Shown in pieces: positions 2,178 through 53,152 of a stretch of 55,005 nucleotides of DNA. This DNA is from Thermoanaerobaculia bacterium (GTDB lineage: Bacteria; Acidobacteriota; Thermoanaerobaculia; Multivoradales; UBA5704). The stretch is taken from NCBI GenBank assembly GCA_036397955.1, contig DASWHY010000275.1, forward strand, positions 1 to 55,005. Reading direction: 5' to 3'. A model generated the notes under the pieces. The model saw nothing but the letters and a program-made list of their open reading frames with translations. It ran no database searches and was not told the DNA's origin. Position 1 is the stretch's first letter. Every line of letters starts with the position of its first letter. Made by a program: the position numbers and the translations under genes.

Positions 2178-3752
2178 TCAACACGGAGAAGACACCACAC
2201 CGGTGGCATTGCGGAGCCTGGCGGCAATGAAATCGGTGAGCGGCTTGACGTGGCTCTCCGGATCCCACCATTCGCCGAACAGGTTCTCCAACAAGTGCAA
2301 CTCGGCGATCTTCTTGCGACCCTGGTAGTGGCGTACAACGGGGTGAAGGAACGTGCTGCGGTCCGCCTTTTGCGGATCCGGGTGGCGGAGGATGTTGAAG
2401 GGATCGCCCACGATCTTGCCGAACTCGAGCGTGACGACGAAGTAGTTACGGTTACGGCTCAGACTCGACTCCTGGACGTAGTCGACAGGGAGCTCGTGCA
2501 GGTACCGTGCTCTGTCTCCTTCGTCCGCGAGCACGATCACGTCAGCCATGAAGCCGAACAGTTGCCACAATGCCGAAGTGCGGTTGATGCGGACGAGCAT
2601 TGCCTCCACCAACCGTTCCGGTGTCTGCTCGACCTCCTCGAACGGCCACGGGACGCCGTGGTATTTGCCGGCGAGCAAGCGGTGAAGGGCGCGGACGTTG
2701 TAGCGGAAGCCGTGGATGAAAGCCGAGGTCGCCTTCTTGTAATCGCGCATCTGGGTCAGGGTTCCGACGAAGTAGAGGTCCGGCACGTTGGTTGATTCGA
2801 ACTCGCTCGTCTGCTCCGGCAGCCGGTTGGAGTTCCACATGGCCGGACGGCAGCTCTCGTCGAAGATCGAATCGTCGAAACGGAACCCGGTACACGTGAT
2901 CACCCGGTCATAGACCAGGTCCTCGTGCTCTTCCTCGGCATGGGAGTAGCGTATGCTGACGAGGAACTTGCCTTCCTTGGTGCGGGTGATCTTGCGAATC
3001 GTGCCGTCGAGGACGGCGTTCTGCGTCTTCAACTGGTATGTGTCGAGGAAGTTGTTGTTCACCGCGCGGAGGTGGCCCGGGAAGTGGGTCCGCCACGCCA
3101 TGTGGAGCGGATTGGGGCTCAGGACGTGGATCAACGCGGTCGTTGGGATCAGTCTTTCCGCCGTCTCGAACCCGGAATTGCCCTTGCCGATGACGAGCAC
3201 CCTCTGGCCGGCGAAATCTTCGGCATCCACGGACACGTCGAAGTAGCTCTCGGTGAGCTCGACGCCCGGTATTCGCGGAACGAAGGGCTTGGAAACTCCG
3301 GTGGCGACGATCAGCCGGCGGCCGCGCCACGTCCTGCCGTTGCCGTCGCTGACCGTGAAGACGTCCGCCTTGGCGACGCTCGCCACCCGCGCCGCGTATT
3401 CGACGCGCAGGCGATAACGCTCGGCGTAGTCGCTCAGGTAGTCGAGCATCGCCGCCTTGGGCGGGAAGTACTCCCGGCTGTAGCTGTTGAAGCGGAAGTC
3501 CGGATCGTCGCTGAGGAGCGAATTCCAGTCAAAGCGCAGGTTGATCTCCGGATCGTCGTAACCGGTATGGACCTTGTTGGAGGAGATCAGGGTCCCGTGA
3601 CGCGGGAACTTCTCGAAGAAGGATCCGGGCTTGCTCCCGGCTTCGAGGACCATATAGTCGCGCCGTTCCTTTTCCATGTAATAGGCGAGCTGCAGCCCTC
3701 CCGGGCCGGCACCGATGATCAGGTAATCGTGGATCTGCTCTCCGTTTCCCAT
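2178..3752 (-). CDS. FAD/NAD(P)-binding oxidoreductase (two-dinucleotide-fold, flavin-monooxygenase-like), 524 aa
   Basis: There is an N-terminal GxGxxG fold (DYLIIGAGPGGLQLAYYM) and a second fold, GQRVLVIGKGNSGFETAE. ATG 3752 is preceded by a purine-rich GGGGG. The gene overlaps the upstream KMO gene by 34 nt. It is visibly lower in GC than its neighbours (about 60-63% in hand-counted 60-nt samples). Confidence 0.75.
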   Translation of the reverse strand: MGNGEQIHDYLIIGAGPGGLQLAYYMEKERRDYMVLEAGSKPGSFFEKFPRHGTLISSNKVHTGYDDPEINLRFDWNSLLSDDPDFRFNSYSREYFPPKAAMLDYLSDYAERYRLRVEYAARVASVAKADVFTVSDGNGRTWRGRRLIVATGVSKPFVPRIPGVELTESYFDVSVDAEDFAGQRVLVIGKGNSGFETAERLIPTTALIHVLSPNPLHMAWRTHFPGHLRAVNNNFLDTYQLKTQNAVLDGTIRKITRTKEGKFLVSIRYSHAEEEHEDLVYDRVITCTGFRFDDSIFDESCRPAMWNSNRLPEQTSEFESTNVPDLYFVGTLTQMRDYKKATSAFIHGFRYNVRALHRLLAGKYHGVPWPFEEVEQTPERLVEAMLVRINRTSALWQLFGFMADVIVLADEGDRARYLHELPVDYVQESSLSRNRNYFVVTLEFGKIVGDPFNILRHPDPQKADRSTFLHPVVRHYQGRKKIAELHLLENLFGEWWDPESHVKPLTDFIAARLRNATGVVSSPC

Positions 3753-5146
3753 TGGACGACCCCCTGTGTCTGTCTCCGGAGTTCCTTGTTACGAGCGTGG
3801 CTCGCGACGCCGAAAGCCTGCCAAATGAAGGGATCCATCTCGCCGCGGTCGAGCATCGCCTCGACGCCTTCGAGCTCGAGGAGGCGATCGATCTTGCCGC
3901 GGGCTTCGCGATCGATCCGGCGGGCCTCGGTGTACGGTGTGGTGGTGAAGGAGATCAGCGAATAGAGCGCTGAATAGGTCTCGGGATAGAGCTCGTCGAT
4001 CCGGCGCTCCAGGCGCGTGCGCAGCAGGAAGCGCGGATCGCGGACGTGCTCCTGGAGCACCTCGAAGTGCTCCAGGGCGAGATCGGCGATGGTCTCGGCG
4101 TTGGGATGGTGGCGCCTCTCGTAGCGCTGGAATGCCTCGTGCCAGTCGCCGCGGGCCGCCTCGAGGCATTCATCGATCACCGCGCAGCCCTCGAAGCCGA
4201 AATTGGCGCCCTGGCCGTAGGAGGGCACGATGGCGTGGGCCGAGTCGCCTGCCAGGGCTACCTTGTCGCCGTACGTCCACGGAAAGCAACGGACGGTGAC
4301 CATCGGCGTGGCCGGACGGCGGAAGTAATCCTCGACCAGGCGCGGCAGGACCGCTTCGGCGCCGGGAAAGAGCTCGCAAAACAGCGCCCGCAGGTCGGCC
4401 TCGTCTTTGACCGAGCCGAACGACATCTCGCCCTCGAAGGGCAGGTGCAAGGCCATGGTGAAGCTGCCGTCGAGATTGGCGAAGCCGATCAGCATGTGGC
4501 GGCCACGCGGCCACACGTGGATGGCGTGCTCGTCGAGCGCCCAGCCGCCGTCCGGCCGCGGGGGCAGGTCGAGCTCCTTGTAGCCCTGCTCGAGGTATTG
4601 CCGGGCGCAGCGCAGGCGCCCGTGCTCCCGGAGCTGCCGGCGGACCACCGAGTGGGCGCCGTCGGCGCCGAAGATGCGCGAGGCCGCCACCTCGGTTTGC
4701 GTGCCCCGCTCGCGGTCCTCGAACACGGCCCGCGGACCTTCCGGATCGATCGACCGGCACTTCTTCCCGAAGTGCGTGTGGATTCCCGGATGCTGCTCGG
4801 CGAAGTCGAGCAAGGTCTCGTTGAGCGCGTTGCGGGAGATGGAGTGGATCGCCTCGCGGCGGCAGCCGTAGGGCTGGAAGACCGGGGCGCCATCACGGCC
4901 ATGGATCACGCGGCCGTACGCCGGGATCGCGAGGCGCCGCACACGCTGCCCGACTCCCACCCGATCAAGCGCGCGCAAGCCGCGCTCACACAGGGTCAGG
5001 TTGATGGATCGACCCCTGTCCGGCCGGCGCCGGCGCAAGTCGGCACGCCGCTCGAAGAGCTCGACCCGCTGTCCCCGACGGGCGAGGTAGACGGCCAGGA
5101 GCGAGCCGACCAGGCCCGATCCTACGATGACGATTCTCTCTCCCAC
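3719..5146 (-). CDS. kmo: kynurenine 3-monooxygenase (FAD-dependent aromatic hydroxylase), 475 aa
   Basis: Motifs seen: RIVIVGSGLVGSLLAVYLARRG...ELFERR (FAD fold), GRSINLTLCERGLRAL, GADGAHSVVRR, and LAGDSAHAIVPSYGQGANFGFEGC. This is the KMO/UbiH-family signature set and length. The GTG start at 5146 has GGAGG 7 nt upstream, inside the end of the YceI gene. Confidence 0.8.
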   Translation of the reverse strand: MGERIVIVGSGLVGSLLAVYLARRGQRVELFERRADLRRRRPDRGRSINLTLCERGLRALDRVGVGQRVRRLAIPAYGRVIHGRDGAPVFQPYGCRREAIHSISRNALNETLLDFAEQHPGIHTHFGKKCRSIDPEGPRAVFEDRERGTQTEVAASRIFGADGAHSVVRRQLREHGRLRCARQYLEQGYKELDLPPRPDGGWALDEHAIHVWPRGRHMLIGFANLDGSFTMALHLPFEGEMSFGSVKDEADLRALFCELFPGAEAVLPRLVEDYFRRPATPMVTVRCFPWTYGDKVALAGDSAHAIVPSYGQGANFGFEGCAVIDECLEAARGDWHEAFQRYERRHHPNAETIADLALEHFEVLQEHVRDPRFLLRTRLERRIDELYPETYSALYSLISFTTTPYTEARRIDREARGKIDRLLELEGVEAMLDRGEMDPFIWQAFGVASHARNKELRRQTQGVVQWETESRSTIT

Positions 5147-5149
5147 GCG

Positions 5150-5848
5150 TCAACCTCCGGGCTCCTCCTCGGCCGAGGAAGTACCCTTCTTGCCGTCCGG
5201 CTCGTTGGCCTTGTCGATCATCGGATCCCTTCCCGGCGTGAAGGGCCGTCCCAGGCGGGTGATGACGAAGAGCTCGATCTCGATCTCCTTGCCGACGAAG
5301 AGAGAGCCGTCGTCCATCACCCGCATCCACGAAACGCCGTATTCGGTGCGGTCGAGGGTGAAGCGGGAATCGGCGCCGAGGAACTCGCTGTGGGCGGTCA
5401 CGCGGAAGGGGATGGCGATCTCTTTGGTGACTCCACGCAGGGTGAGCTCGCCCACCAGGCGGTAGGCGTCGCCGCTTGCGACGTCCCTGTCCACCCGCTT
5501 GCTCTTGAAGGTGATCTCGGGGTGGCTGCCGGTATCGAAGAAGTCGGCCGTACGCAGGTGCTGGTCACGGTCGGCGATGCCGGTGGAGATGCTCGCGGCG
5601 TCGATCACCAGCTCGACGTCCATCGTGGTCAGGTCCTCGGGATCGTGGAGCACGATCGAGCCCTCGAAGGTAGGGAACTTGCCGCTGACCTTGCCGGCGC
5701 CGAGGACCGGCGCCAGGAAGCCGATGGTCGTGTGATTTGCGTCGATCGGATAGCGGATGGCCTGGCGGGGCGCCGGGACCTCTTGGCCGGGAGCGGTGAG
5801 GGCGAGCAGCCCGGCGCCGAGGATCAGGGAGAAGGTGCGTGGTCTCAT
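5150..5848 (-). CDS. YceI-family periplasmic (polyisoprenoid-binding-like) protein, 232 aa
   Basis: ATG 5848 has GGAG upstream. The signal peptide is MRPRTFSLILGAGLLALTAPG. The YceI core is HTTIGFLAPVLGAGKVSGKFPTFEGSI...DRDQHLRTADFFD...HPEITFKS...GELTLRGVTKEI. The ORF-track entry 5150-6379 is an Arg-rich upstream extension that overlaps the cytochrome gene. Confidence 0.85.
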   Translation of the reverse strand: MRPRTFSLILGAGLLALTAPGQEVPAPRQAIRYPIDANHTTIGFLAPVLGAGKVSGKFPTFEGSIVLHDPEDLTTMDVELVIDAASISTGIADRDQHLRTADFFDTGSHPEITFKSKRVDRDVASGDAYRLVGELTLRGVTKEIAIPFRVTAHSEFLGADSRFTLDRTEYGVSWMRVMDDGSLFVGKEIEIELFVITRLGRPFTPGRDPMIDKANEPDGKKGTSSAEEEPGG

Positions 5849-5856
5849 GGGACTCC

Positions 5857-7467
5857 TCAGAGCGTCTTTAGGAAGGCGATCAGGGCGCGCCGTTCCTCGG
5901 CGTCGAGCTTGAGGCCGAAGGGGTGGCCCTTCACGGCGTAGGGCTTGCCGAAGGGCTTGAAGCCGGTGGGGACGTAGCCCTCCTCGACCCGCTTCGGATC
6001 GAGCCAATCCTCGAGGGTCGCGGCCCAGCCGGAGTGACCGAACGGGCCCCGGTACCAGACTCCCTTGAGCGAGGGCACCTTGTAGAGGCCCGTGCCGCGG
6101 CGGGTGTAGAGCGCCAGGCCCGGATCGGTGCCGACGGTGCGGCTGATGATGTCCGCCGCCCGCGGATGGTCCGCCGGCGGCTCGTAGCCGAGGGCCGGCG
6201 TGAGCTTGTTGCTGGTGTAGAGGGGCGGGGTGTGGCAGCGGTTGCACTCCTCGCGCTCGAAGACCTTCTGGCCGCGCGCCGCGAGCTCGTCGAAGGGATG
6301 CGGGCTCGGGGGCGGCTCGAGGGAGTAGACGAAAAGCGCGAGGGCGTAGAGCTGCTCGTCGGTGAAACGCCGCATCCACGGCGGGATCCCCCGCTCGCCC
6401 CGGAGGTCGAGCCCTTCGCCGTCGCCCCAGGTGAATCGGTCGAGAAAGGCCATGCCCTGCTGCAAGGCGCCGTAGCGCATCAGGTCACCGACCGAGCGGT
6501 GCTGGGCATGACCCGTGCGGTCGAGGTAGCGGCGGTCCGCGACGCCGATCAGGTCCGGGATCTGCACGGGGTGGAAGGCGCTGGTGCCGAAACGCGGCTG
6601 GACGCCCGCGGGGATGGCGGCCTCGAGCTCGTAGGTCTCCTCGGGTGTGAGCTCGGCGTGGCGGGCCGTGGGATCCATCTTGCCCGCCCAGGGCACGCCC
6701 CAGGTGCGCGCGATACCGGCGACGCGGTCCCGGACTGCCTTCTCGGGATCTTCCGCCTGGCCGAGCCGTTCCTTGAGGGCCAGGGCGTCGAGGCGCGCCA
6801 GAGGGAAATTGCCCTGGGCTCCCCGGATCACCGAGCCGTCGTCCATTACCCGGGTATGGCAGGCGGCGCAGGAGAACTCGCCGAGGCGGACCTTGCCCTT
6901 CTCGAGCACGAAGTAACGGAAGAAAGGAACGGTGCCGTCGTTCGCGACCGGCACGCCGGTCTTCTCATACCAGGCAGGGTCGCGGACGGTTTCGACCTTG
7001 ACGAGCGCGTCGTATGCGATCGGGGTGGTGAAGACGAGTTCGCCGGCGGCGATCCAGTCCTCCTCGGTCGCGAGCTTCTCCGGGTCGAAGGCGATCTCGG
7101 GCTCGATCTTCTCCAACTTCTCGAGGTAGCCCTCGGGCTCCCGGTCCGGATGGTAGACGGGATAGCTCCTGGCGATGACGCGAGGGGGAATCGAGTAGTA
7201 CTCCTCCGCGGTCAGGTGCTCGACCTTTGCGCCGAGGGCCAGGGGGAGCTCGACGGTGGCGATGGCCTTCTCGTCCCAGGTTCTGGGGATCTCGGGACGC
7301 CAGGGCTCCTCTCGTACCCTCTCCGCTTGCGCGACGGCCTCCGGCGCCGCTTGCTCTGGCGGCTCGACTTCCTCTGGCGGCTCCACCGAGAAGCTCCGCA
7401 GCGCTCCGGCGCCGAACAGGATCAGCGCCGCCGCTGCGGACAGTCGGCCAAGAGCTCTCTTCGGCAT
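5857..7467 (-). CDS. secreted di-haem c-type cytochrome, cytochrome-c-peroxidase/MauG-like, 536 aa
   Basis: The signal peptide is MPKRALGRLSAAAALILFGAGA. There are two CxxCH haem-binding motifs (FSCAACHTRV and EECNRCHTPP). The stop lies 8 nt before the YceI start. Confidence 0.65.
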   Translation of the reverse strand: MPKRALGRLSAAAALILFGAGALRSFSVEPPEEVEPPEQAAPEAVAQAERVREEPWRPEIPRTWDEKAIATVELPLALGAKVEHLTAEEYYSIPPRVIARSYPVYHPDREPEGYLEKLEKIEPEIAFDPEKLATEEDWIAAGELVFTTPIAYDALVKVETVRDPAWYEKTGVPVANDGTVPFFRYFVLEKGKVRLGEFSCAACHTRVMDDGSVIRGAQGNFPLARLDALALKERLGQAEDPEKAVRDRVAGIARTWGVPWAGKMDPTARHAELTPEETYELEAAIPAGVQPRFGTSAFHPVQIPDLIGVADRRYLDRTGHAQHRSVGDLMRYGALQQGMAFLDRFTWGDGEGLDLRGERGIPPWMRRFTDEQLYALALFVYSLEPPPSPHPFDELAARGQKVFEREECNRCHTPPLYTSNKLTPALGYEPPADHPRAADIISRTVGTDPGLALYTRRGTGLYKVPSLKGVWYRGPFGHSGWAATLEDWLDPKRVEEGYVPTGFKPFGKPYAVKGHPFGLKLDAEERRALIAFLKTL

Positions 7468-7632
7468 GATCGACCCCTTCCTCTGCGTCGCCGGGCGCCC
7501 TCGGGCACCAGGCTCACTCTGTTCGAGCGGACGAGTCCATTATACTGGTTTCTCCGGTCGGATGGTCCCGAATTCTCCGCTTTCGCCGCCGATCGACCCG
7601 GGGCGAAGACCTGGGTTTGAAGGAACCGTCGA

Positions 7633-10032
7633 TTGTCGCAGGAATTGCGCCGCGCCGCCCGCAACCTCGTCCGCCATCGCGGCTTCGCCCTCGCCGTGGT
7701 GCTCTGCCTGGCCCTCGGTCTCGCGGCGACGAGCGCCAACTTCAGCGTGGCTTACGGCGTCCTGCTCCGGGCTCTGCCGTACCACGAGCCCCGGAGGCTG
7801 GTCGTCGTCTGGAACCACTTCGGCGACCAGGAACCTGCCCAGCGCGCGCTTTCCGAGCCGGAGCTCGCCGACCTCGCCGCGGAGGGCGACGGCTTCGAAT
7901 CCGTTGCCGGGATGATGGGATGGCGCTTCACCCTGACCGGCACGGGCGAGCCCGAGCAAATCGTGGGCGCGCGGGCTTCAGCCGACCTGTTCCGGGCTCT
8001 CGGCCGCGGGGCCGAGGTCGGCCGGACCTTCCTCGCCCACGAGGACGGGCCCGGCAGCGAGCCGGTGGCCGTGCTCTCCCACGGCTTCTGGCAACGGCGG
8101 TTCGGAGGCGAGCGCCAGATCGTGGGCCGGACGATCGTCCTAAACGGCCAGGCCCACACCGTGGTCGGCGTCATGCCGCCGGGCTTCCGCATCCTCGGCA
8201 ATTACGAGATCTGGACGCCGATGGTCCTCGATCCCGAGCACATGATGCCGCGCAGCGCGCGAGCGGTTCAGGTCTTCGCTCGGCTGCGGCCGGGGATCGA
8301 GCTCGGCGAGGCGCAGGCGCGACTCGACGCTTTGGCGGGCCGCTGGCGCGAGCGCGAGCCGGATCACTATCCCGCCGACGGCTGGCGCCTCACGGCCCGT
8401 CCCCTGCTGGAGGAGATCGTGGGCACGGCCCGGCCGGCGATCCTGGCACGTCTGGCGGCGGGGCTCGCGGTGCTCGTGCTGGCGTGCGGCAACACGGCCC
8501 AACTGCTCCTCGCCCGGGCGGCCCGGCGCGAGGTCGAGACGGCCGTGCGCGCGGCCCTCGGGGCGAGCCGCTGGTTCCTCGGCCGGCCGGCCCTCGCCGA
8601 AGCGACGCTCCTCGCCCTCGCCGGGGGTGTCGTGGGAGTTTTCTTGGCCCGGGCCGCCGTACGGCTTCTTCGCTTTCTCTCGCCGGCGGGGCTCCCGCGG
8701 CTCGACGCCGTCGCCGTCGACGGGCCGGTGATCGTCTTCACCTTTTTCCTGGCTTTCTTGAGCGCTCTGGCCGTGGGCTCGCTGCCGACATGGCGCTCAC
8801 CCCACGAGCGGCTCGCCCGGCTCCTCAAGGAAGGCGGCCGCGGTGCCGGCGCCGCGGCCGGCGGCCGTTTCCTGATCGTCGTCGAGGTGGCGCTCGCCCT
8901 GGTGGTCTTGACGAGCGCCGGCCTTCTGGCCCGGAGCTTCTGGCGCCTCGAAGGGGCGGATCCGGGCTTCCGCCGGCAGGGCGTGCTGACGGCGCAGCTC
9001 TCGCTGCCGCGCTCGAGCTACCCTGAGGGCGCCCTGACGACGGATTTCTTCGACCGGCTCCTCGAGCGGGCGGCGGCTCTGCCCGGCATCCGGGCGGCGG
9101 GGGCGGTTTCGCAACTGCCGCTCACCGGGGGCAGCTTTTCGGGCACGATCGAGATCGAAGGCCAACCGCCGCCGGCCGGCCAGCAGGGGCCCACCGTGGG
9201 CTGGCGGATGGCCACCCCCGACTACTTCCGCGCGATGGACGTTCCCGTCGTCGACGGCCGGCCCTTCGACGGCCGAGACCACGCGGAGGCTCCGGCGGTG
9301 GTGATCGTCGACGAGGGAATGGCGAAGCGGTTCTGGCCGGGGCGCAGCGCCGTCGGCCAACGCCTCGCCCTCGGCGACTGGGCGGACACCGGTCCGCTGA
9401 CGGTGGTGGGCGTCGTCGGCCAGGTGCGCCAGGAGGGTCTCGACCAGGTTCCGCTCGAGCAGCTCTACCTGCCCCTGGCGCAAATGCCGCGCCGGTCCAT
9501 GGCCGTGGTGCTCCGTGCCGAAGGGGATCCGGCCGAGCTCGCCGCGCCCCTACGGCGGCTGGTGACCGAGCTCGACGCCGGCCTCCCGGTCTCCGCGGTG
9601 GCGACGATCGAAGAGCTCCTCGCGTCTTCCCTCTCTGGTTTCCGCACGAACGCCTCGCTCTTCGGCCTGCTGGCGGCGGTGGCCGTCGTCCTCGCGGCCG
9701 TCGGCGTCCACGGCGTCACCGCGCTCTCGGCCGCCCGGCGGACCCGGGAGTTCGGCGTGCGCCTCGCTCTCGGCGGGAGCCGGCGCGACGTCGTACTCCT
9801 GGTGCTCCGCCGCAGCCTGGGGCTCGCCTTGGCCGGCGTCGGCCTCGGGCTGCTCGCGGCCTTCTGGGTGACCCGGATCCTCGCCGCCATGCTCTACGGC
9901 GTCGAGCCCTTCGACCCTCCGACCTTCACCGCCGCCGCGCTCTTCCTGGTCGCCGTCACCCTCCTGGCCGGCCTGCGCCCTGCCTGGCGCGCTTCGCGCA
10001 CCGACCCGATCGCGGCCCTGCGGCACGAATGA
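7633..10032 (+). CDS. ADOP-family duplicated FtsX/MacB-type ABC permease, 799 aa
   Basis: The TTG start at 7633 has AAGGA upstream. The N-terminus (M)SQELRRAARNLVRHRGFALAVVLCLALGLAATSANFSVAYGVLLRALPYHEPRRLVVVW matches the ADOP consensus (LRxLxxxPGFxxxAVLxLALGIGAxxAIFS...LPYxxPxRLV). Two permease halves are present, each ending in FtsX-like TM helices. No ATPase gene is adjacent. Confidence 0.85.
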   Translation: MSQELRRAARNLVRHRGFALAVVLCLALGLAATSANFSVAYGVLLRALPYHEPRRLVVVWNHFGDQEPAQRALSEPELADLAAEGDGFESVAGMMGWRFTLTGTGEPEQIVGARASADLFRALGRGAEVGRTFLAHEDGPGSEPVAVLSHGFWQRRFGGERQIVGRTIVLNGQAHTVVGVMPPGFRILGNYEIWTPMVLDPEHMMPRSARAVQVFARLRPGIELGEAQARLDALAGRWREREPDHYPADGWRLTARPLLEEIVGTARPAILARLAAGLAVLVLACGNTAQLLLARAARREVETAVRAALGASRWFLGRPALAEATLLALAGGVVGVFLARAAVRLLRFLSPAGLPRLDAVAVDGPVIVFTFFLAFLSALAVGSLPTWRSPHERLARLLKEGGRGAGAAAGGRFLIVVEVALALVVLTSAGLLARSFWRLEGADPGFRRQGVLTAQLSLPRSSYPEGALTTDFFDRLLERAAALPGIRAAGAVSQLPLTGGSFSGTIEIEGQPPPAGQQGPTVGWRMATPDYFRAMDVPVVDGRPFDGRDHAEAPAVVIVDEGMAKRFWPGRSAVGQRLALGDWADTGPLTVVGVVGQVRQEGLDQVPLEQLYLPLAQMPRRSMAVVLRAEGDPAELAAPLRRLVTELDAGLPVSAVATIEELLASSLSGFRTNASLFGLLAAVAVVLAAVGVHGVTALSAARRTREFGVRLALGGSRRDVVLLVLRRSLGLALAGVGLGLLAAFWVTRILAAMLYGVEPFDPPTFTAAALFLVAVTLLAGLRPAWRASRTDPIAALRHE

Positions 10033-10036
10033 CCAC

Positions 10037-11428
10037 TCAGGGCTCCTCGAAGAAGAGCCCTTCCGCGGCGCCCCGGGTAGAGTTGACGACAGCCCCCTCG
10101 ACGCGGGGAGCGAGGCGCAGCATACCGCCGGCATAGCGCTCACCGACGGTGAAGACACCCCAGACGACGTCGTGGACCGCCGGGCCGCGCGCGCCGTCCA
10201 GGGCCATAAGGGGAGACGGGAGGAGGCGTTTCTGGACGATCCAATCGCCGGCCGCCAGGGCGCGGCTCAGGATCGCTTCCCATCGCGGGGGCGGAGTCGC
10301 GTGCCCCAGGGCGACGCCGGCGCCGCCGCCGGAGCGGCCGGGCTTCATCACCAGGCGCTCGCGCTCGGCGAGCACGAGGTCGCGCAGGACCACCCGGCGG
10401 CCTTCGTGCTCGACCATGCCCGGACGAATCTGGCGGGTCCACGGGACCACCCGGTCGATCAGCGCCCCCTCCTCGGCGGAGAAGAGCCGCCCGGCGTGCT
10501 CCGAGAGCAGCGCCAGGTTGCGCTTGTCGGCGAGGATCAGGGCGACCGGGCCGTTGTAGAGGCGCACCTGCCCCGATTTCCAGGACCTGAAGAGAGGGCC
10601 GCGGTGGGAAACGCCTTGCTCGATCACTGCGGCCACCGGCCGGCGGCCGAGGACGACGCCGCGGGATTCGCTCCGCAGGTCGGCGGCCCGCCCGATCACC
10701 ACCCGTCCCCGGCGGCCCGGGGCCAGCCGCGCCAGGACCCCGGCCAGAGCGTCGCTGGCGTAGGCCTCGATCCCGACGGCCAGATCCGGCGTCAGAGCCG
10801 CCTCGGTGGTCAGGGCGACGTCGAGGTCGCCTCCGTTCGGTGCTGTCGCCGCCAGCGTCTCGCCGACCACGTGCTCGAGGAGGATCGCCATCGACGGTGT
10901 GTGGACGAGATTCACGCCGCTGGCGGCGAGCTCGTCAAAAAAGTCCCTTACCGGCGGCGTCGAGCGGCAGACGGAAGCCAGCCGGCCGAGATCCCAGCCG
11001 CCCGCGAGCCCCAGGTTCACCTCGATGATCCGGGGGCCCGCGCAGGTCCAGAGAAAATCGGTGCGGGCGATCACGCCCTCGAAGCCGCCGATCTCCTCGG
11101 CGATCATCCGCGCCAGGGATGGATCGCCGAGGCGGTAGAAGGCGGCGAGATGCTCGGGGCGGTTGCCGAAGAAGCGTTCGGGAAGCGTCCGCACGAGACG
11201 GACGACGCCGCGGCAGGCAGCGGCGAGCTCCTCCACCGCCGGCCGATCGAGCACGAAGGGCCAGGGCTGGAAAAGGAAAGTCCTGCGCGTGGCAGCCGCC
11301 AGGGAGACGAAGGCGTCGTGGTCGCACCAGCGGGGATCGGCGGCCGCGCGCTCGAGCAGACGCGCCGAGATCGGACCTAGCGCCCGATGGGCTCGGCGGA
11401 CCTCGTCGTCGAGAGGCAGAACGCTCAC
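10037..11428 (-). CDS. ATP-grasp-fold ligase of the glutathionylspermidine-synthase / circularly permuted ATP-grasp group, 463 aa
   Basis: The GTG start at 11428 overlaps the TGA of the TE-containing NRPS (GTGA). By eye, the protein aligns with E. coli YgiC/Gss synthetase motifs: RTDFLWTCAGPRIIEVNLG (RLDLAWDxxGxPKLLExN), ILADKRNLALLSE (ISNKALLPLLWE), LVMKPGRSGGGAGVALG (VVKPxxSREGANV), WIVQKRL (IVQQF), and YAGGMLRLAP...VVNSTRGAAEGLFF (AGIGIRED..ITxxxSRFxPH). The ORF-track entry 10037-12700 is an upstream artefact extension. Confidence 0.6.
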   Translation of the reverse strand: MSVLPLDDEVRRAHRALGPISARLLERAAADPRWCDHDAFVSLAAATRRTFLFQPWPFVLDRPAVEELAAACRGVVRLVRTLPERFFGNRPEHLAAFYRLGDPSLARMIAEEIGGFEGVIARTDFLWTCAGPRIIEVNLGLAGGWDLGRLASVCRSTPPVRDFFDELAASGVNLVHTPSMAILLEHVVGETLAATAPNGGDLDVALTTEAALTPDLAVGIEAYASDALAGVLARLAPGRRGRVVIGRAADLRSESRGVVLGRRPVAAVIEQGVSHRGPLFRSWKSGQVRLYNGPVALILADKRNLALLSEHAGRLFSAEEGALIDRVVPWTRQIRPGMVEHEGRRVVLRDLVLAERERLVMKPGRSGGGAGVALGHATPPPRWEAILSRALAAGDWIVQKRLLPSPLMALDGARGPAVHDVVWGVFTVGERYAGGMLRLAPRVEGAVVNSTRGAAEGLFFEEP

Positions 11429-14400
11429 CCTTCCACCTCCGCCGTCGCGACGGCCCGGTCGAGGGCCTCTCTCAGGGATTCGGCGAGCCCGTCGACCCAG
11501 GGCTCGGCCACGAGGTTCCGATGGGTCCCGGGGACCACCCGGACGTCGAGGCTGGCCGCGAGCTCGCCCCAGCGCTCGACCAGGGGCTCGCGCTCGTCGT
11601 CCGCCCGTTCCTGCGAGAGCACGAGGGTCAGGCGGCCGGGATAGCGCGGCGGCCGGTAGCGCTTCACGAGATCGCCGTTCATCCGCACGACGGAGAGGAT
11701 CGCCCGGGCGTCGTCGAGGTCGAAGTCGCGCGGCAAGGCGCCGGAAGACCGGCCGAGCTCGACCACGTAGCGCAGTTGCTCCTCCTCCTCCATGGCGCGC
11801 AGCTCTTCGGTCGTGCGTTCGATGCTCGAGCCGAGGAGCTCCTTGAGGATCACCGCTTGATCGATCTCGAGGTCGGCGGCCTCGCCGGCGCCGACGAGAA
11901 AGGTGTCGATCACCGCCAACAAGGCTACTTCCGCGCCCTGGCGGCGGAGCGCCTGGGCGACGGCGAAGGCAACCATGCCGCCGAAGGACCAGCCGCCCAG
12001 GCAGTAGCCGCCTCCGGGATGGACCTCGCGCAGGGCCCCGGCATAGACCGCCGCCATCTCTTCGAGGCTCCGGTAGCGGACGTCGGTGCCCACGAGGTGG
12101 AGGGCGTCGAAGCCATAGAAGGGACGCTCGGGCCCTAGCCGACGCGCGAGGTCCTGGTAGCAGAGCGGGCTGCCGCCCAGGGGATGGGCGCAGAAAAAGG
12201 GCGTGGCCTCGCCCCGAGGCTGGAGAGCCACCACCACGTCGCGGCGGCGTATGCCGGGCTCGCTCCGGCGAAGCTGGAGCGCCTGGGTCTCGACGGTCGG
12301 CGCCTCGAAGAGGCTCGCCAGGGAGATCGAGTGGCCCAGATCGCGCTCGATCCGCCCGACGAGCGGGGCCACCAGGAGGGAATGGCCGCCGAGATCGAAG
12401 AAATCGTCGCGCACTCCGACCGGCGCGATTCCGAGGATCTCCTCCCAGACGTGTACCAGCCGCAGCTCTAGGGGATCGCGGGCCGGCTGGTAGGGCTCGG
12501 CCAGCTCCGGACGCGACGTCGAAGGCGCGGGCAGGGCGGCGCGGTCGAGCTTGCCGTTGGGGGTCAGGGGCAGAGCCCCGAGGACGACGAAGGCCGAGGG
12601 GACGGCCGTGGCGGGCAGGGATTCCCGGGCGTGAAGACCGAGCTCGCGGGCGCTCGGCTCCGGTTCGCCGATCGCCGGCACGACGTAGGCCACGAGCCAC
12701 TTCTCGCCCCCGGGGCCGTCGTCGCGCGCCACCACGGCGACGTCGCCTACGTCCGGGTGCGTCCTGAGCGCCGCCTCGACTTCTTTCGGCTCGACCCGCG
12801 CGCCGCGGATCTTGACCTGCTCGTCGAGGCGTCCGCGGAACTCGAGCAGGCCGTCCTCGCGCAGGACCCCGAGGTCGCCGGTGCGGTAGAGGAGATCGTC
12901 GGGATCGTCGCGAAAGGGATTAGCGGCGAAGCGGTCGCCGCTGGAGTCGCCGCCGAGAAAGCCGAGGCTCCGAAACGGCGTTCGGATGACGATCTCGCCG
13001 GGCTCGCCGAGCCCGTGGAGGCGATCTCCCGACAGGATCAATGCCTGGGTCTCGGGCAACGGTCGGCCGAGGGGCTGGATCCCCGGCTCCGGCGGATCGG
13101 GAACCGGGAAGAAACACTTGGCGAGGGTGGTCTCGGTCGGGCCGTAGAGGTTGACGATCTCGCCGGCCACGGCGAAGGTCCGCCGCAGGCGCTCGACGAG
13201 ATCGTCGGCCAAGGGCTCGCCGGCGAAGAAGAGGTAGCGCAGCGCCGAGAGATCGACTTCCCGCGGCGCTCCCGTGAGCCAGGCGCGAGCCACCGACGGG
13301 ACGGCGTGGAGCCCCGTGACGCGCCGCGCCGCGAGCCACTCGGGAAGCCCCGGCGACGCCGCGGTCGTCCCGGGCGGCGGCAGGCAGAGGGTGGCGCCCG
13401 AGGTCAGGGGCAGGAAGACGTCCCGCATGAGGACGTCGAACGACAGGCCGGTGAGCTGGGCGAAGCGCTCGCCGGGCCCGACGCCGAACCGGGCACGCTG
13501 CCAGGCGAGGAAATGGGCCAGGCCGCGGTGGCGACCAAGGACCGGCTTGGGCTTGCCCGTGCTGCCCGAGGTGAAGAAGACGTACGCCGGATCGTCGCCG
13601 CAGACCGCCGGCAGGTCAGCCGCCGCGGCGCCGGCGGCGCTCGCGGAGTCGAGGCGTCGGCGCGCGCCGGCGAGCTCGCGCAGACGCCGTCGCCGCTCGG
13701 CCGGCAAGGCCGGATCGATCGGCACCAGCACGCCGCCCGCGAGCACGATACCGAGGGCGCCGGCGACGAGGTCGGCCGAGCGCGGGCCGGAAAGCGCCAC
13801 GGCCTCGCCCGGAGCAAGACCCTCGGCCCGTAGGTCGGCCGCCACGGCGAGGGCCCGCGCGCGGAGCTCCCGGTAGGTCACGACCCTCCCCTCCTCTTCC
13901 ACCGCCGGTCTCTCCGGCCGGGCCGCGGCCATCTCCAGGAAACGCGACGGCAGGAGGTCGTAGGACGGCACCGGCAGCACCGCCGCGGGATCGGGGAGGA
14001 TCGTCCGGGCCCTCGGAGTGACGAGGGAGAAGTCCCCCAGGCGGCGCTCCGGATCCCCGGCGGCCGTCTCGAGGACGGCGGCGAGCTGGGCGAGGATCTC
14101 GTCGACGGCCTCGGCGGTGAAGCGCCGGGCGTCGTATTTTATGGCCAGGCCGAGGCGCGCGCCGCCGGGTTGGCCGTGGAGGGTGAGGGGGAGGCTCGTC
14201 TGCTCGATGGCGCGGTAGCCGGAGAGCTCGAGGCCGAGCCCGTCGGCGCCCGCCGCGCCGGCGTCGTCGACGGGATAGTTCTCGAAGACGACGATGCTCT
14301 CGAAAAGCGGACGACCCCGCGGCACCTCGCTCCATCCCTGGACGTCGGCGAGCGAGCTCGCCTCGTGGGCTCGAAGCTCCAGGAGCCGCCCCTGGAGCTC

Positions 14401-15345
14401 GGCCGCCGTCTCGTCGAAGGGGCGCCCGGGAACGAGCCTCAAGCGCACCGGCAGGGTGTTCAAGAACAGCCCGACCATACTCTCGACCCCGGCAAGCTCG
14501 GCCGGCCGGCCGGCTACGACGACGCCGAAAAGCACGTCGTGCTCGCCGGACCAGCGGCCGAGGAGCAAGGCCCAGGCGGTCTGGAGCATGGTGCTCGGGG
14601 TGAGGCCGGCGCGGCGGGCGAGGCCCTCGAGGGCGGCGGTCGCCGCCTCGGAGATCGCGGTCTTGCGCTGGTCGTAGAGCTTTCGCGGCAACGGCTCGAG
14701 GCGGCGGGAAAATCCCAGGGGGGTCGGGGCGGTGAAGCCCGCGAGCTCGTGGCGCCAGAAATCCTCCGCCCCTTTCCGGTCCTGCTCCACAAGCCAGGCG
14801 ACGTAGTCGGCGTAGGGCCTCGGCACCGGCAGCTCGACCTCTTCGCCCCGGCGTGCCGCCCGATAGAAGACGAAGAACTCGCGGAAGAGGATCGGCATCG
14901 ACCAGCCGTCGAGGAGCAGGTGGTGATGGCTCCAGACAAACCGGTTGAGCCGTTCCCCGAGGTGGAGGAGCCGGAGCCGGACGAGCGGAGCCGAGGCGAG
15001 ATCGAAGCCGCGCTCGCGGTCTTCGGCCAGCAGCGCGTCGAGGCGGGCGTCGCGCTCGGCGGGATCTACCCCGCGCCAGTCCTCGATCGCCAGGGGAAGG
15101 TCGACGCCGGCGAGCACCACCTGGACCGGCTCGTCGAGGCTTTGCCAGTCGAAGGCGGTGCGCAGCACGGCATGGCGCTCGGCCACCCGCCGCCAGGCCC
15201 GTTCGAAGGCGGTCAGGTCGAGCTCGCCCGCGAGCTCGCAGGTCATCTGCTCGAAGTAAACCCCGGACTCTGGGGCGTAGAGAGTATGAAAGAGCATGCC
15301 CTGCTGCATCGGCGAGAGCGGGTAGACGTTCTCGATCTGACTCAA
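11425..15345 (-). CDS. NRPS, module 10: C(DCL-type)-A-T-TE, 1306 aa
   Basis: The probable TTG start at 15345 (GGAGGG 8 nt upstream) overlaps the upstream stop (TTGA). Motifs: IENVYPLSPMQQGMLFH, SHHHLLLDGWS (~14893-14935), AYVFFTSGSTGKPKP, LSFDVLMRD, NLYGPTETTLAKC, PNGKLDRAAL (~12538-12575), FFDLGGHSLLVAPL (~12368-12412), and TE GGWSFGG (~11978-11998). The 3226-aa ORF-track entry is an artefact upstream of 15345. Confidence 0.93.
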   Translation of the reverse strand: MSQIENVYPLSPMQQGMLFHTLYAPESGVYFEQMTCELAGELDLTAFERAWRRVAERHAVLRTAFDWQSLDEPVQVVLAGVDLPLAIEDWRGVDPAERDARLDALLAEDRERGFDLASAPLVRLRLLHLGERLNRFVWSHHHLLLDGWSMPILFREFFVFYRAARRGEEVELPVPRPYADYVAWLVEQDRKGAEDFWRHELAGFTAPTPLGFSRRLEPLPRKLYDQRKTAISEAATAALEGLARRAGLTPSTMLQTAWALLLGRWSGEHDVLFGVVVAGRPAELAGVESMVGLFLNTLPVRLRLVPGRPFDETAAELQGRLLELRAHEASSLADVQGWSEVPRGRPLFESIVVFENYPVDDAGAAGADGLGLELSGYRAIEQTSLPLTLHGQPGGARLGLAIKYDARRFTAEAVDEILAQLAAVLETAAGDPERRLGDFSLVTPRARTILPDPAAVLPVPSYDLLPSRFLEMAAARPERPAVEEEGRVVTYRELRARALAVAADLRAEGLAPGEAVALSGPRSADLVAGALGIVLAGGVLVPIDPALPAERRRRLRELAGARRRLDSASAAGAAAADLPAVCGDDPAYVFFTSGSTGKPKPVLGRHRGLAHFLAWQRARFGVGPGERFAQLTGLSFDVLMRDVFLPLTSGATLCLPPPGTTAASPGLPEWLAARRVTGLHAVPSVARAWLTGAPREVDLSALRYLFFAGEPLADDLVERLRRTFAVAGEIVNLYGPTETTLAKCFFPVPDPPEPGIQPLGRPLPETQALILSGDRLHGLGEPGEIVIRTPFRSLGFLGGDSSGDRFAANPFRDDPDDLLYRTGDLGVLREDGLLEFRGRLDEQVKIRGARVEPKEVEAALRTHPDVGDVAVVARDDGPGGEKWLVAYVVPAIGEPEPSARELGLHARESLPATAVPSAFVVLGALPLTPNGKLDRAALPAPSTSRPELAEPYQPARDPLELRLVHVWEEILGIAPVGVRDDFFDLGGHSLLVAPLVGRIERDLGHSISLASLFEAPTVETQALQLRRSEPGIRRRDVVVALQPRGEATPFFCAHPLGGSPLCYQDLARRLGPERPFYGFDALHLVGTDVRYRSLEEMAAVYAGALREVHPGGGYCLGGWSFGGMVAFAVAQALRRQGAEVALLAVIDTFLVGAGEAADLEIDQAVILKELLGSSIERTTEELRAMEEEEQLRYVVELGRSSGALPRDFDLDDARAILSVVRMNGDLVKRYRPPRYPGRLTLVLSQERADDEREPLVERWGELAASLDVRVVPGTHRNLVAEPWVDGLAESLREALDRAVATAEVEG
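11428..12250 (-). other. thioesterase (TE) release domain
   Basis: Motifs: PFFCAHPLGGSPLCYQDLARRL, nucleophile elbow GGWSFGG (~11978-11998), and C-terminal PGTHRNL with the His. Confidence 0.85.
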
Positions 15346-18300
15346 TTCCTGCCCTCCGCGCGCCGGCCGCCGAACTTCTTCAGCAGGCGGTCGAGCTTTG
15401 CCTGATCGGTCCTGATCAGGGGGAAATCGCTCGGCACGGCCACCGTCGGCTCGCCGGCGCGGCTCGCGGCGACCAGGGCGCGGAGGTGCTCGAGATGCCT
15501 CTCGGCCAGGCCTTCGATGGTCGAGCGGCGGTGGAGGCTCCGGCTGTAGCGCCAGGTCAGGCGCAGCGCGCCCCCCGCCACAAGAGCGCTGATCTCGAAG
15601 ACGTGGGGACGTTGCCATCGGGGGCTCCGGAGCGCTCCGGGGCTTTCCGCCGCGATCGCGAAGAGCGCCCCGGCCGAGCCGGCGGCGGAGGCTCCGCCGT
15701 CGACCTGGCCGAGGTAGTTGAACATCACCTCTGCCTGCGGCCCGCACGCCAGCTCGCGAGCCACCGCCTCGCCGCACAGATTGTGCAAGAGGCCGTAGCC
15801 CAGGCCGCGCCGGGGAATCGCCCGCAGACGCTCCTTCACCGCGCGCAGGGTCGCCACCGGATCCCGCTTTCCCGGCGGCCCGGCGGCCTCGACCTCCACC
15901 GGGTAGACGGCGGTGAACCAGCCCACGGTGCGCGAGAGGTCGAGGTCGTCGAAGAGCTCCTCTCGGCCGTGGCTCTCGGTATCGACGAGGAGGGAGGGCT
16001 CGCCGGTGAAGGGCTCGAAGGCCAGGACGAGGGCGGTGAGGAGGGCCTCGTCGGCGCGGGCGCGGAACGCCCTCGCCACCTCCTGGAGGAGAGCCCGGGT
16101 GTCCTCGGCGCCGAGGGCGGCGCTCACCTCCTCCACCGCCCCTTCGAGGTTCTCGCTCCCTGGAAGGTCGCGCGGCAGGGGAACGGGCGCGCGCGCGTCC
16201 GGCCGGCGCCAGAAATCGAGCTCTTCCGCGAGCTCCGGCGAGCGGGCGAAGGCCGCGAGACGCTCGGCCCAGGCCCTGAACGAGGTGGTCTTCGGCGGCA
16301 GGGACGGCTCCCGGTCGGCGATCAAGGCCGCGGCGACGCTCCCCAGGTCCTCGACCAGGAGACGCCACGAGACGCCGTCGATCGCCAGGTGATGGACGGT
16401 CAGGAGAAGGCGGTCGGAGGCGCCGCCGCCGAGGCGGAAGAGCACGACGCGCGCGAGCGGCCCGCGGGCGAGGTCGAGGCTCGTCTCGGCCCGCGCGGCC
16501 GCCGCCTCGAGGGCGCCGCGGCGGCGCGGCACGGGCAAGGCTCCGAGGTCGACGTGGTGAAAGGGCGGCGCCGCGGGCACCGGAGCGTTCTCCTGGAGCC
16601 AGATGCCGCCCTCGCGCCGGAAACGCAGGCGGAGGGCGTCGTGGTGGGCCAGGAGAAGCTCGGCCGCGCGGCGGAAGAAGGCGGGCGCCACGGGTCGGCG
16701 CACTTCGAGCATCAGGGCCTGGTTGAAATGGTGGGGCGACGGCGGGACGGCGTCGAGGAGCCATCTCTGGATCGGCGTCAGGGGCACGGGTCCCACGACC
16801 GGCCCCTGCTCCGCGGCCGGCGCCGCGCCGACCCCGGCCACCGCCGCGAGCTCCCCCAGGGTCTGGTACTGGAAGACCTGCTTCGCGGTCACGACGAGGC
16901 CCCTCTGGCGCGCCCGGGCGGCGACGCGGATGCTCAGGATCGAATCGCCGCCGAGCTCGAAGAAGTGACTGTCGCTTCTCACGTCCCCGACCCCGAGGAC
17001 ATCCCGCCAGACCTCCGCCAGGAGGGCCTCGGCACGGCCCCGGGGAGCCGTTCCCGCGCGCTCCCCCGCGAGGGTCGGGGCGTCGAGGCCGGGCAGGGCT
17101 CCACGGTCGACCTTGCCGCCAGCGGTGCGCGGAAGAGCGTCGACGCGCCGCATCAGCGCCGGCACCATCGCCGGCGGCAGGCTCCGGCGCGCGGACTCCC
17201 AGAGCTCCTCGGCCGGCGCTTCTCCCGCCGTCACGATCCAGGCCTCGAGCCGGCGCCCTCCCGTCGGCCCGGGGCACGCCAAGACCACCGCCTCGGTCAC
17301 GCCCGGCAGGGCCGCGAGACCGGCCTCGACGTCGCCCAGCTCCACTCGCACGCCGCGGATCTTGACCTGATGGTCGGTGCGGCCGAGGAACTCGACGCTG
17401 CCGTCGCCCAGGTGACGCGCGAGGTCGCCGGTGAGATAGAGGCGCTCGCCGGGCGCGCCGTCCGAGCGTGGAACGAAACGCTCGGCGGTCCGCCGCGGAT
17501 GGTCGCGGTAGCCCCAGGCCAGGCCCGCCCCCGCGATCGCGAGCTCGCCGGCGGTCCCCGGCGGCACCGGGCGGGCGCGGTCGTCGAAAAGTAGGATCTC
17601 CTTGTTGGCAATCGGCCGGCCGATCGGCACGACGTGGGGGTGGAGCTCGCCGCCGCAGGTCCAGCAGGAGGCGTCGATCGAGGCCTCGGTCGGCCCGTAC
17701 ACGTTGTGCAGGGCCGCGCGGCTCGCGGCGCGGAAGGCGTCGCGCAGGTCGGCCCGGAGGGCCTCGCCGCCGGAGAAGAGATGGCGCAGGTCGCCGAGGG
17801 CGGCGAAGCGCGGGTCGGCAACCAGCTCGCGCAGGAGGGCGGGCGGGAAATCGGCGATCGTCACCCGGTGCCGCGCCATGAGCTCCAGGAGGTGATCCGG
17901 GTCCTGGTGGCCGTCGCCGAGCGGCAGGACGAGGCGGGCGCCACTCGCCAGGGCGCCGAAGACCTGCCACACCGAGGGATCGAAGGTCAGCGGGATGTTC
18001 TGCAGGAAGCGGTCCTCGGGCCGCAGGGCGAAGGCGCGGCCACGCCAGCGGAGGGTGTTCACCGCCCCGCCGTGGGGCACCATCACCCCCCGGGGGCGGC
18101 CGGTGGAACCCGAGGTGAAGAGGACGTAGGCGAGGTCCCCCGGCCCCGTCCGCTCCGGCGGACGCTCCGCCGGGCGCCCGGCCACGCCGGGGTCGTCGAG
18201 ATCCAGGACGAGACGCGGGGCGCGTCCTCTCGGGCCGCGCTCGGCGAAAGCCGGGGACACGACGAGGAGCCCGGCGCCGGAGTCCTCGAGCATTGCCGCG

Positions 18301-53011: not shown

Positions 53012-53030
53012 CGTCTCCACCTCAATCTCA

Positions 53031-53036
53031 CGTGCG
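53031..53036 (-). promoter_or_regulatory. candidate -10 hexamer TAGAAT for the NRPS/PKS operon
   Basis: The minus strand reads ggtgTAGAATccggcgcacgtgagattgaggtggagacgATG. This is the best sigma70-like -10 in an otherwise GC-rich stretch, ~20 nt upstream of ATG 53011. The -35 is poor (TTCCCG at 17-nt spacing). If it is used, starts at 53062 or 53101 are excluded. Confidence 0.25.
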
Positions 53037-53152
53037 CCGGATTCTACACCGGCGGGCGCCATCCGGGAAGAGGCAGCTTTCAAGTGGGTGTAACGATGCA
53101 AAGCGACCTCCGCGTCGCGGCTGTACGAGGCTCGGCGCTTGCCACCGTCCGT

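Follow-up and report, generated by a model that had tools for sequence, protein, structure and literature searches.

What is an ATP-dependent ligase doing behind the thioesterase that ends an assembly line? The question is raised by a 55,005-nucleotide stretch of contig DASWHY010000275.1 from a Thermoanaerobaculia bacterium (hereafter the window, meaning the whole stretch), in which a gene for an ATP-grasp protein (the grasp gene) lies at the end of an operon of nonribosomal peptide synthetase (NRPS) and polyketide synthase (PKS) genes (Table 1). We propose that the enzyme works after chain release, phosphorylating a carboxylate of the peptide freed by the thioesterase (TE) and joining it to an amine in an extra amide bond, a reading to which we give about an even chance.

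The minus-strand frame of the grasp gene holds 463 codons and a stop, without internal stop codons. Its GTG start (G11428-T11427-G11426) overlaps the TGA stop (T11427-G11426-A11425) of the upstream synthetase gene, which encodes condensation (C), adenylation (A), thiolation (T) and TE domains, and the start position matches the N-termini of 33 homologues in the family alignment. The codon-position GC contents (0.77/0.52/0.87) are like those of the flanking genes, the neighbours having a third-position GC (GC3) of 0.90. A 402-amino-acid open reading frame (ORF) on the plus strand (10172..11380) was rejected as an antisense shadow with a mirrored pattern (GC1 0.88, GC3 0.77). A MacB/FtsX-type permease gene in convergent orientation ends at 10032, leaving 4 nt between the two genes, so the grasp gene is the last of its operon; a promoter and terminator scan around the TE–grasp junction found no promoter-like or terminator-like site between the two genes. 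A preliminary description of this DNA had claimed the GTG–TGA overlap, the C-A-T-TE neighbour, the terminal position and a free-standing C domain at the opposite end of the operon, and all of these were found. It had also claimed stoichiometric expression with product release, which does not follow. All five operon junctions are 4-nt start/stop overlaps (GTGA, TTGA and three ATGA), and because the overlap is common to every operon gene it does not imply stoichiometry; it is the general style of the operon and nothing particular to the grasp gene. The grasp gene is nevertheless coupled exactly as the synthetase genes are coupled to one another, which argues that it is part of the machine.

Single-sequence searches of the window protein against Pfam, NCBIfam and PDB sequences gave no match even at E≤10. 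We therefore turn to its predicted structure: the AlphaFold model, built with the family alignment (pLDDT 92.4, pTM 0.92), matched 48 PDB chains of the circularly permuted ATP-grasp clade at E≤2.4e-8 in Foldseek, with nothing else in between. The best match was Cp1B (9cjn; E 1e-16, template modelling score (TM) ~0.59), together with human, plant, yeast and nematode glutathione or homoglutathione synthetases (E ~1e-15, TM ~0.6) and the CP_ATPgrasp_1 structure 3n6x (E 1.8e-15, TM 0.61). Escherichia coli GspS (E 7e-12, TM ~0.55), YjfC and YgiC (E ~1e-11, TM ~0.53) and trypanothione synthetase (E 8e-9, TM 0.42-0.47) were also among the matches. Classical ATP-grasps appeared far behind and as RimK-domain chains only (E 8e-4 to 3e-3, TM 0.27-0.28); the protein does not show the RimK/Ddl-like fold of the microviridin/graspetide macrocyclases and L-amino-acid ligases. 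The three-domain model has the permuted order, in which the Mg/phosphate motif comes early in the chain, towards the N-terminus, and the strands that bind the nucleotide come late, towards the C-terminus. On this model, the grasp protein has a circularly permuted ATP-grasp fold of the glutathione synthetase/GspS/Cp1B clade, and Gss/YgiC are not nearer to it than Cp1B or the eukaryotic glutathione synthetases are.

Links at the sequence level are weak, though they agree with one another. The best is between the family profile and 3n6x (E 0.008), followed by weak Pfam matches among 34 relatives to CP_ATPgrasp_2 (14/34, best E 3.5e-4), CP_ATPgrasp_1 (9/34, 2.2e-3) and GSP_synth (2/34, 2e-6), with weak and rare matches to ATP-grasp_3, GSH-S_ATP and R2K_3. 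The window protein itself matches neither CP_ATPgrasp_1/2 (PF04174/PF14403), for which all relatives stay below the curated threshold (P0036, for example, reaches 27.2 bits against a cut-off of 32), nor GSP_synth (PF03738) at E≤10, the gathering score not being reached; precomputed collection records mark a GSP_synth match as 'faint'. The partners described for CP_ATPgrasp_1/2 proteins are of the alpha-E and transglutaminase-like kinds, and an association with synthetases is not known. Alignment of the family profile with E. coli GspS by hhalign (probability 5%, E 0.0077) was weak and served for the motif register only.

Within that register the catalytic motif is intact. The spacing R122-x-D124-(11)-E136-x-N138 is identical to that of GspS R316-x-D318-(11)-E330-x-N332, with which it aligns, and R122, D124, E136, N138, K362 and Q399 are invariant in 89/89 collected domain copies, whatever their genomic context. 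Towards the C-terminus, V-M-K362-P, V-Q399 and GG-M-L-R438 align by eye with GspS AVKP, YQQLW and GGTCLR598, and also with 3n6x. The roles of the residues are presumed by analogy with GspS and Cp1B. The Cp1B equivalents, R139, D141, E163 and N165, lie around the nucleotide, and changing them to alanine abolishes or cripples activity (PMC12568646). The Cp1B likeness extends, in a profile alignment, to DKR-x-L and LKP-x-x-G-x-G stretches, the family signature DKRNLALLSE resembling Cp1B DKRMLGI. Fold and motif together thus support an ATP-grasp amide ligase of the glutathione synthetase/GspS structural clade, as predicted. The Gss/YgiC label of the preliminary description survives at the level of the permuted clade and in the alignment of both the R-x-D...E-x-N and the C-terminal motifs, but not as family membership, as no Gss/YgiC hidden Markov model (HMM) detects the protein.

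These results bear on the idea that the protein is a true glutathionylspermidine synthetase or YgiC orthologue, serving thiol or polyamine housekeeping and lying beside the cluster by chance. The fold is indeed common to GspS and YgiC/YjfC, and the two relatives with sub-threshold GSP_synth matches are distant ones. However, the structural alignments with GspS and YgiC show only 13-14% identity, the amidase domain of GspS is absent from the window protein, and the grasp gene is tied by its 4-nt overlap into a biosynthetic operon. With the genomic distribution given below, in which most well-flanked relatives lie in assembly-line clusters and some are fused in frame to synthetases, we regard orthology as exceedingly improbable.

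The family is large, and its members keep company with assembly lines. A collection clustered at 90% identity holds 34 clear homologues (457-494 amino acids, 22 invariant columns), all annotated 'hypothetical', and a HMMER scan of 1.84 billion cluster representatives (50% identity) returned 4057 at E≤1e-3, 2886 at 1e-10 and 1140 at 1e-30. A search of GTDB species representatives with DKRNLALLSE retrieved 76 relatives and 75 loci, whose hosts are Thermoanaerobaculia, other Acidobacteriota, Holophagales, Aminicenantes, Longimicrobium (Gemmatimonadota), Myxococcus, Corallococcus, Sorangium and a few others. Every locus was scanned by tblastn for NRPS/PKS domains, the queries being C, A, T, TE and ketosynthase (KS) domains taken from the window (L and P numbers below denote genomic loci and proteins of the family, respectively). 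Assembly-line domains are present in 48/79 non-redundant loci and, among the 40 with at least 5 kb on each side, in 30; 6/40 carry a gene resembling those for peptide aminoacyl-tRNA ligases (PEARLs), in part the same loci, and 8 have neither. The tie to the end of an assembly line, claimed from the one operon, is thus borne out across the family: homologues overwhelmingly adjoin NRPS/PKS genes, and several are fused to T-TE. This adjacency, with the fusions, is stronger evidence of coupling than the GTGA overlap.

Two kinds of arrangement place the ligase directly at the release step. A separate grasp gene follows the TE in the window, L002, L023, L024, L034 and L045. In-frame T-TE-grasp fusions occur in loci L038, L039 and L057 and in proteins P0086, P0169, P0121 and P0036 (checked with Pfam) and P0144 and P0167 (from reading of the sequence); they position the grasp domain right behind the point at which a free carboxylate arises. 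In a neighbour-joining tree, TE-associated copies fall in four separate clades. The window protein groups with P0002 (L001; 42% identity) and P0005 (L002; 38-39%), whose clusters end in the same DVRHFALLA-T-TE module, named here by the pocket code of its A domain. In L002, also from Thermoanaerobaculia, a DinB_2-family gene begins 15 nt after the grasp gene; many members of the DinB_2 superfamily are thiol-dependent transferases. The terminal A codes differ among TE-associated loci: the window shares DVRHFALLA with L001 and L002, whereas L023 and L024 have Cys-like codes, L057 a Pro-like one, L038/L039 DANNIGQID and L045 DVASNGLTY. The shared feature is the released carboxylate rather than a particular side chain.

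In the reaction that we infer for the window enzyme, the TE of the neighbouring C-A-T-TE module, which has its catalytic Ser and His (GWSFG plus His), would free the chain as an acid. The ligase, binding ATP-Mg through R122, D124, E136, N138 and K362, would then phosphorylate the released peptide on a carboxylate, in all likelihood that of its C-terminus, and an amine would attack the acyl-phosphate to give an amide that the assembly line does not make. All of the top structural matches are enzymes that activate a short peptide or a diacid by phosphorylating its carboxylate and then couple it to an amine, and by analogy they support such ligase chemistry. Glutathione synthetase phosphorylates the C-terminal carboxylate of a short peptide, after which the amine of Gly or beta-Ala attacks the acyl-phosphate (PMC11117183); Cp1B couples a small-diacid carboxylate to amino acids by the same chemistry (PMC12568646); YgiC and YjfC have been reported as peptide-spermidine ligases, in work cited in PMC12568646; and GspS amidates a peptide C-terminal carboxylate with spermidine.

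Each of these relatives also differs from the window protein. Cp1B, a fungal ATP-grasp of E-64 biosynthesis that shares the R-x-D...E-x-N constellation and, like the window family, is a natural-product enzyme once annotated 'hypothetical', has 16% identity (profile E 0.19, which is not significant alone), belongs to an NRPS-independent pathway with a small diacid as acyl donor, and is neither fused nor adjacent to synthetases. The glutathione and homoglutathione synthetases (2hgs, 3kal, 1m0w) match over the whole chain and share the permuted topology, but at 12-15% identity, without a sequence-level match, and they act in primary metabolism on other substrates, outside any assembly-line context. 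The GspS synthetase domain and YgiC/YjfC (2io7, 7uk8, 7uk6; structural E 7e-12 to 3e-10) have aligned motifs and another genomic context.

The tandem copies bear on the kind of amine. Two to four adjacent grasp genes occur in L019, L026, L031, L035, L037, L044, L048, L070 and L080 (four in L026, at 5896-11386; the L044 array at 8668-12812). P0037, P0046, P0048 and P0054 carry two or three grasp domains per protein, P0039 is KS-acyltransferase (AT) followed by two copies, and P0036 (3684 amino acids) reads C-?-T-TE and then ~5 copies, the first of which looks degenerate. Some three-copy proteins consist of grasp units alone, without a synthetase part. Such arrays fit serial additions, each regenerating a carboxylate, which favours amino-acid nucleophiles; a free amino acid is more likely than a polyamine. 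No polyamine or glutathione genes were recognised near the grasp gene by Pfam analysis of the window. Macrolactam formation was considered as a general role and judged unlikely, as the TE itself can cyclise and the arrays fit serial intermolecular additions better.

Other architectures put grasp domains ahead of any release step. An in-frame T-grasp pair ends a synthetase in L011, L013-L017, L020 and L025 (grasp domain near 10001-11350 of the locus), the next gene opening with KS; P0091 is C-A-T-grasp-KS within one protein; and P0119, P0115, P0080 and P0082 terminate in T-grasp. Because this clade carries the domain between T and KS, it must act on tethered chains. The A domains 350-460 nt before the in-line grasp domain are all acidic at pocket position 239 (DIESIATII, DLDSIGTIM/V, DLDVTGTIQ, DLDSSGTIQ and DTEDIGSVV, from L003, L011, L014, L015, L017, L020 and L025), which, by likeness to the bacitracin Lys code DAESIGSVCK, suggests Lys/Orn-like substrates. 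All 9/9 in-line copies (the eight loci above and the truncated L012) have Ser in place of R438, found in this class only, and keep the other catalytic residues. We read the class, to which P0080, P0091, P0115 and P0119 also belong, as a diverged sub-type in which one substrate would be delivered by a carrier protein.

The same could hold in the window, with the ligase acting in trans on the residue bound to the last T domain and forming a side-chain amide before TE release, either from a tethered side-chain carboxylate and a free amine or from a free acid and a tethered amine. The T-grasp fusions directly before KS and the presumed side-chain amines of their substrates speak for this, as does the tree, in which the window group adjoins the in-line clade (and a myxobacterial one); moreover, the terminal code of the window, with Arg239 and His278, could mean an acidic side chain. 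Against it, the Ser substitution may mark a changed mechanism in the in-line clade, whereas the window enzyme retains R438 and is a separate protein behind the TE; TE-grasp fusions put the domain past the release step, and the terminal residues vary across TE-associated loci. We consider on-line tailoring of the window product rather unlikely, though the main competitor. ATP-grasp action on a carrier-tethered substrate has a functional analogue in BtrJ of butirosin biosynthesis, a classical, non-permuted enzyme.

Because R438 is retained in the window enzyme and a competent TE precedes it, we prefer post-release ligation here; several observations weigh against that choice. The sister clade works inside running lines (C-A(Lys/Orn-like)-T-grasp, then KS), and free copies lie between synthetase genes (L047, L061, L041 and L058), so the family can act before release, as the window enzyme might in trans. 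The closest relative (L001) has its gene among tailoring genes, away from the TE. The Arg239/His278 code may denote an acidic residue, which would make a side-chain carboxylate the target rather than the alpha-carboxylate, and no amine-supply gene was recognised by Pfam in the window. Judged from these gene contexts, post-release capping is not the sole mode of the family.

The free copies raise another alternative, in which the ligase supplies a building block, an unusual pseudo-dipeptide or amide-containing amino acid made from two small molecules, that is then loaded by an A domain such as that with DVRHFALLA. In L047 and L061 the grasp gene lies between an upstream synthetase gene ending in C and a downstream one that starts with A, the latter with the unusual code DGPHLG(I/V)VS; in L041, L058 and L037 it precedes a gene starting with C. 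The best structural match, Cp1B, couples a small diacid with an amino acid, and DVRHFALLA could be matched to no substrate. But it is hard to see why synthetases should carry a precursor enzyme behind their closing T-TE, DVRHFALLA occurs twice in the line of the window and only the terminal module adjoins the grasp gene, and tandem arrays of 3-5 copies are better explained by serial extension. We hold precursor supply to be quite improbable.

The line that would feed the enzyme is a hybrid PKS/NRPS, not a pure NRPS. Its genes are listed in Table 1, where the Ser-, Thr- and Cys-like labels are pocket codes that we read presumptively. The nitroreductase-type oxidase (Ox) insert in a Cys-like module suggests thiazole formation, and a methyltransferase (MT) domain is inserted in the Thr-like A domain. 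The program-made ORF list fuses or lengthens genes at 11425-21105 and 15342-23300 (minus strand), owing to the 73% GC content. Its 3226-amino-acid ORF 11425..21105 is such an artefact: the first 1920 codons are a non-coding frame overlapping the preceding synthetase gene, and the real gene encodes 1306 amino acids. The preliminary description had called the free-standing C protein at the head of the operon VibH-like and taken it, with the ligase, as a hint of a free amine built into the product; nothing in the present results supports that link. VibH-type terminal C domains, which release chains onto free amines, are functional analogues for capping with an unrelated fold. A secretin-family gene (Secretin_N and Secretin matches) lies directly upstream of it.

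On the other side of the permease, the window carries at 7467..3719 the cytochrome c-YceI-monooxygenase genes that in L001 include the grasp gene (cytochrome c-YceI-grasp-FAD monooxygenase, 7451-12858, with a 4-nt overlap between grasp and the monooxygenase start). Since L001 and the window share these genes, the cytochrome c operon of the window probably belongs to one biosynthetic cluster with the assembly line, the grasp gene having been relocated between its operons.

The permease probably serves export. In 10/79 loci, the window included, a MacB-type gene is adjacent or close to the grasp gene, and prodrug-type strategies are known in NRPS pathways, so that one could imagine a reversible mask for self-protection, such as a residue added before export and removed outside the cell. 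Yet MacB-type genes are generally abundant in Acidobacteriota, no conserved peptidase partner adjoins the grasp gene, and nothing specific speaks for masking, which we consider very improbable.

Table 1. Features of the window and of related loci (positions refer to the window unless a locus is named).
Feature	Position	Strand	Basis or content
Grasp gene (operon gene 6), predicted 463-aa circularly permuted ATP-grasp ligase, last of operon	10037..11428	minus	Translation, alignment, model
GTGA, grasp start overlapping C-A-T-TE stop	11425..11428	minus	Read directly
Shine-Dalgarno-like GGAGG, 7 nt before GTG, within TE coding sequence	11436..11440	minus	GGCGGAGGTGGAAGG then GTG
R122-x-D124...E136-x-N138, putative phosphoryl-transfer/Mg2+ motif	11015..11065	minus	Family alignment; GspS and Cp1B equivalents
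DKRNLALLSE, codons 301-310, incl. K302, most conserved family signature	10499..10528	minus	
C-terminal ATP-grasp motifs V-x-K362-P, Q399, GG-x-L-R438	10115..10345	minus	
Terminal synthetase (operon gene 5), 1306 aa	11425..15345	minus	C-A(DVRHFALLA)-T-TE; Pfam, gene call in identical JGI contig, domain map
T domain of terminal synthetase	~12286-12459	minus	Domain map
TE domain of terminal synthetase	~11473-12201	minus	Domain map
Four further PKS/NRPS genes of operon	15342..51632	minus	KS-AT twice, ~7 more C-A-T modules, MT and Ox inserts, epimerization (E)/C-like domains
Operon gene 1			KS-AT-T-C-A(Ser-like)-T-C/E
Operon gene 2			C-A(Thr-like, MT insert)-T-C-A(Cys-like, nitroreductase-type Ox insert)-T
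Operon gene 3			KS-AT-T-C-A(Cys-like)-T-C/E-C-A(Ser-like)-T-C/E
Operon gene 4			C-A(DVRHFALLA)-T-C-A(DPWDFGVID)-T-C/E
Ox insert	35980-36708	minus	
MT insert	39724-41076	minus	
KS-AT units	48753-51632; 32669-35455		
Other junction overlaps	15342-15345 (TTGA); 23180-23183, 35452-35455, 43842-43845 (ATGA)	minus	
Free-standing C-domain protein, 488 aa, head of operon	51635..53101	minus	Separate ORF with HHVAAD
Secretin-family gene	53702-54841	minus	
MacB/FtsX-type permease gene, closing operon	7633..10032	plus	Pfam
Operon cytochrome c-YceI-FAD_binding_3 monooxygenase-class-B flavin monooxygenase	2178..7467	minus	Pfam
DinB_2-family gene	L002 11428-11979		
Myxobacterial/PEARL-context loci	L062, L066, L068, L071 (7567-12343); L049, L081; L004 1879-5975		
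~100-aa ORF upstream of Longimicrobium grasp gene	L060 9669-9974; L072 9470-9811; L073 9272-9814		

A further setting of the family is beside PEARL-like genes. Grasp genes of Myxococcus, Corallococcus and Sorangium adjoin both a PEARL-like gene (Lant_dehydr_N only) and a JmjC/cupin gene, and a PEARL-like gene also adjoins the grasp gene on one metagenome contig. PEARLs use ATP to phosphorylate the C-terminal carboxylate of a peptide, to which an amino acid is joined. The nearest idea in print is that they descend from GS/GspS-like ATP-grasps, the predicted structures of short PEARL homologues resembling GspS and glutathione synthetase (PMC11117183). The likeness has limits: the window protein is half the size of a PEARL, shows no sign of tRNA use and has no PEARL gene in its window, and hhalign of the family profile against the PEARL-like neighbour in L071 detected no similarity. 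The neighbourhoods nevertheless bear on the proposed descent of PEARL/LanB proteins. At other Myxococcus grasp loci, a luciferase-like monooxygenase gene and an MFS transporter gene adjoin.

ATP-grasp ligases are well established in natural-product pathways, and their chemistry is not new; what seems to be undescribed is the present family, along with its size and the way it is built into assembly lines. In the literature on permuted ATP-grasps with NRPS or PKS systems, of which few subscription journals were covered, we found no description of a grasp domain of the glutathione synthetase/GspS fold within NRPS/PKS proteins. We tentatively suggest, at a confidence that falls short of even, that these proteins form an undescribed assembly-line unit, a 'ligation module' present as a separate protein, after T or TE, between T and KS, or in tandem, which would make amides by acyl-phosphate instead of thioester and condensation chemistry. 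In the window it would join one amine or amino acid to a thiazole-containing peptide set free by the TE; arrays would add several in series; and in myxobacteria it would act likewise on ribosomal scaffold peptides, alongside PEARLs. If so, product prediction for NRPS/PKS lines misses at least one residue wherever a grasp gene or domain is present, and T-grasp-KS proteins would show acyl-phosphate chemistry wired straight into thiotemplate lines. More than 1000 sequence clusters across Acidobacteriota, Aminicenantes, Gemmatimonadota and myxobacteria would offer a new handle for genome mining, and biocatalysis might draw on them for ATP-dependent ligases of peptide C-termini.

In the Longimicrobium loci, which are without synthetases, the grasp gene has no conserved neighbour except an upstream ORF of ~100 amino acids in three loci, which could encode a carrier or a precursor peptide, or be noise.

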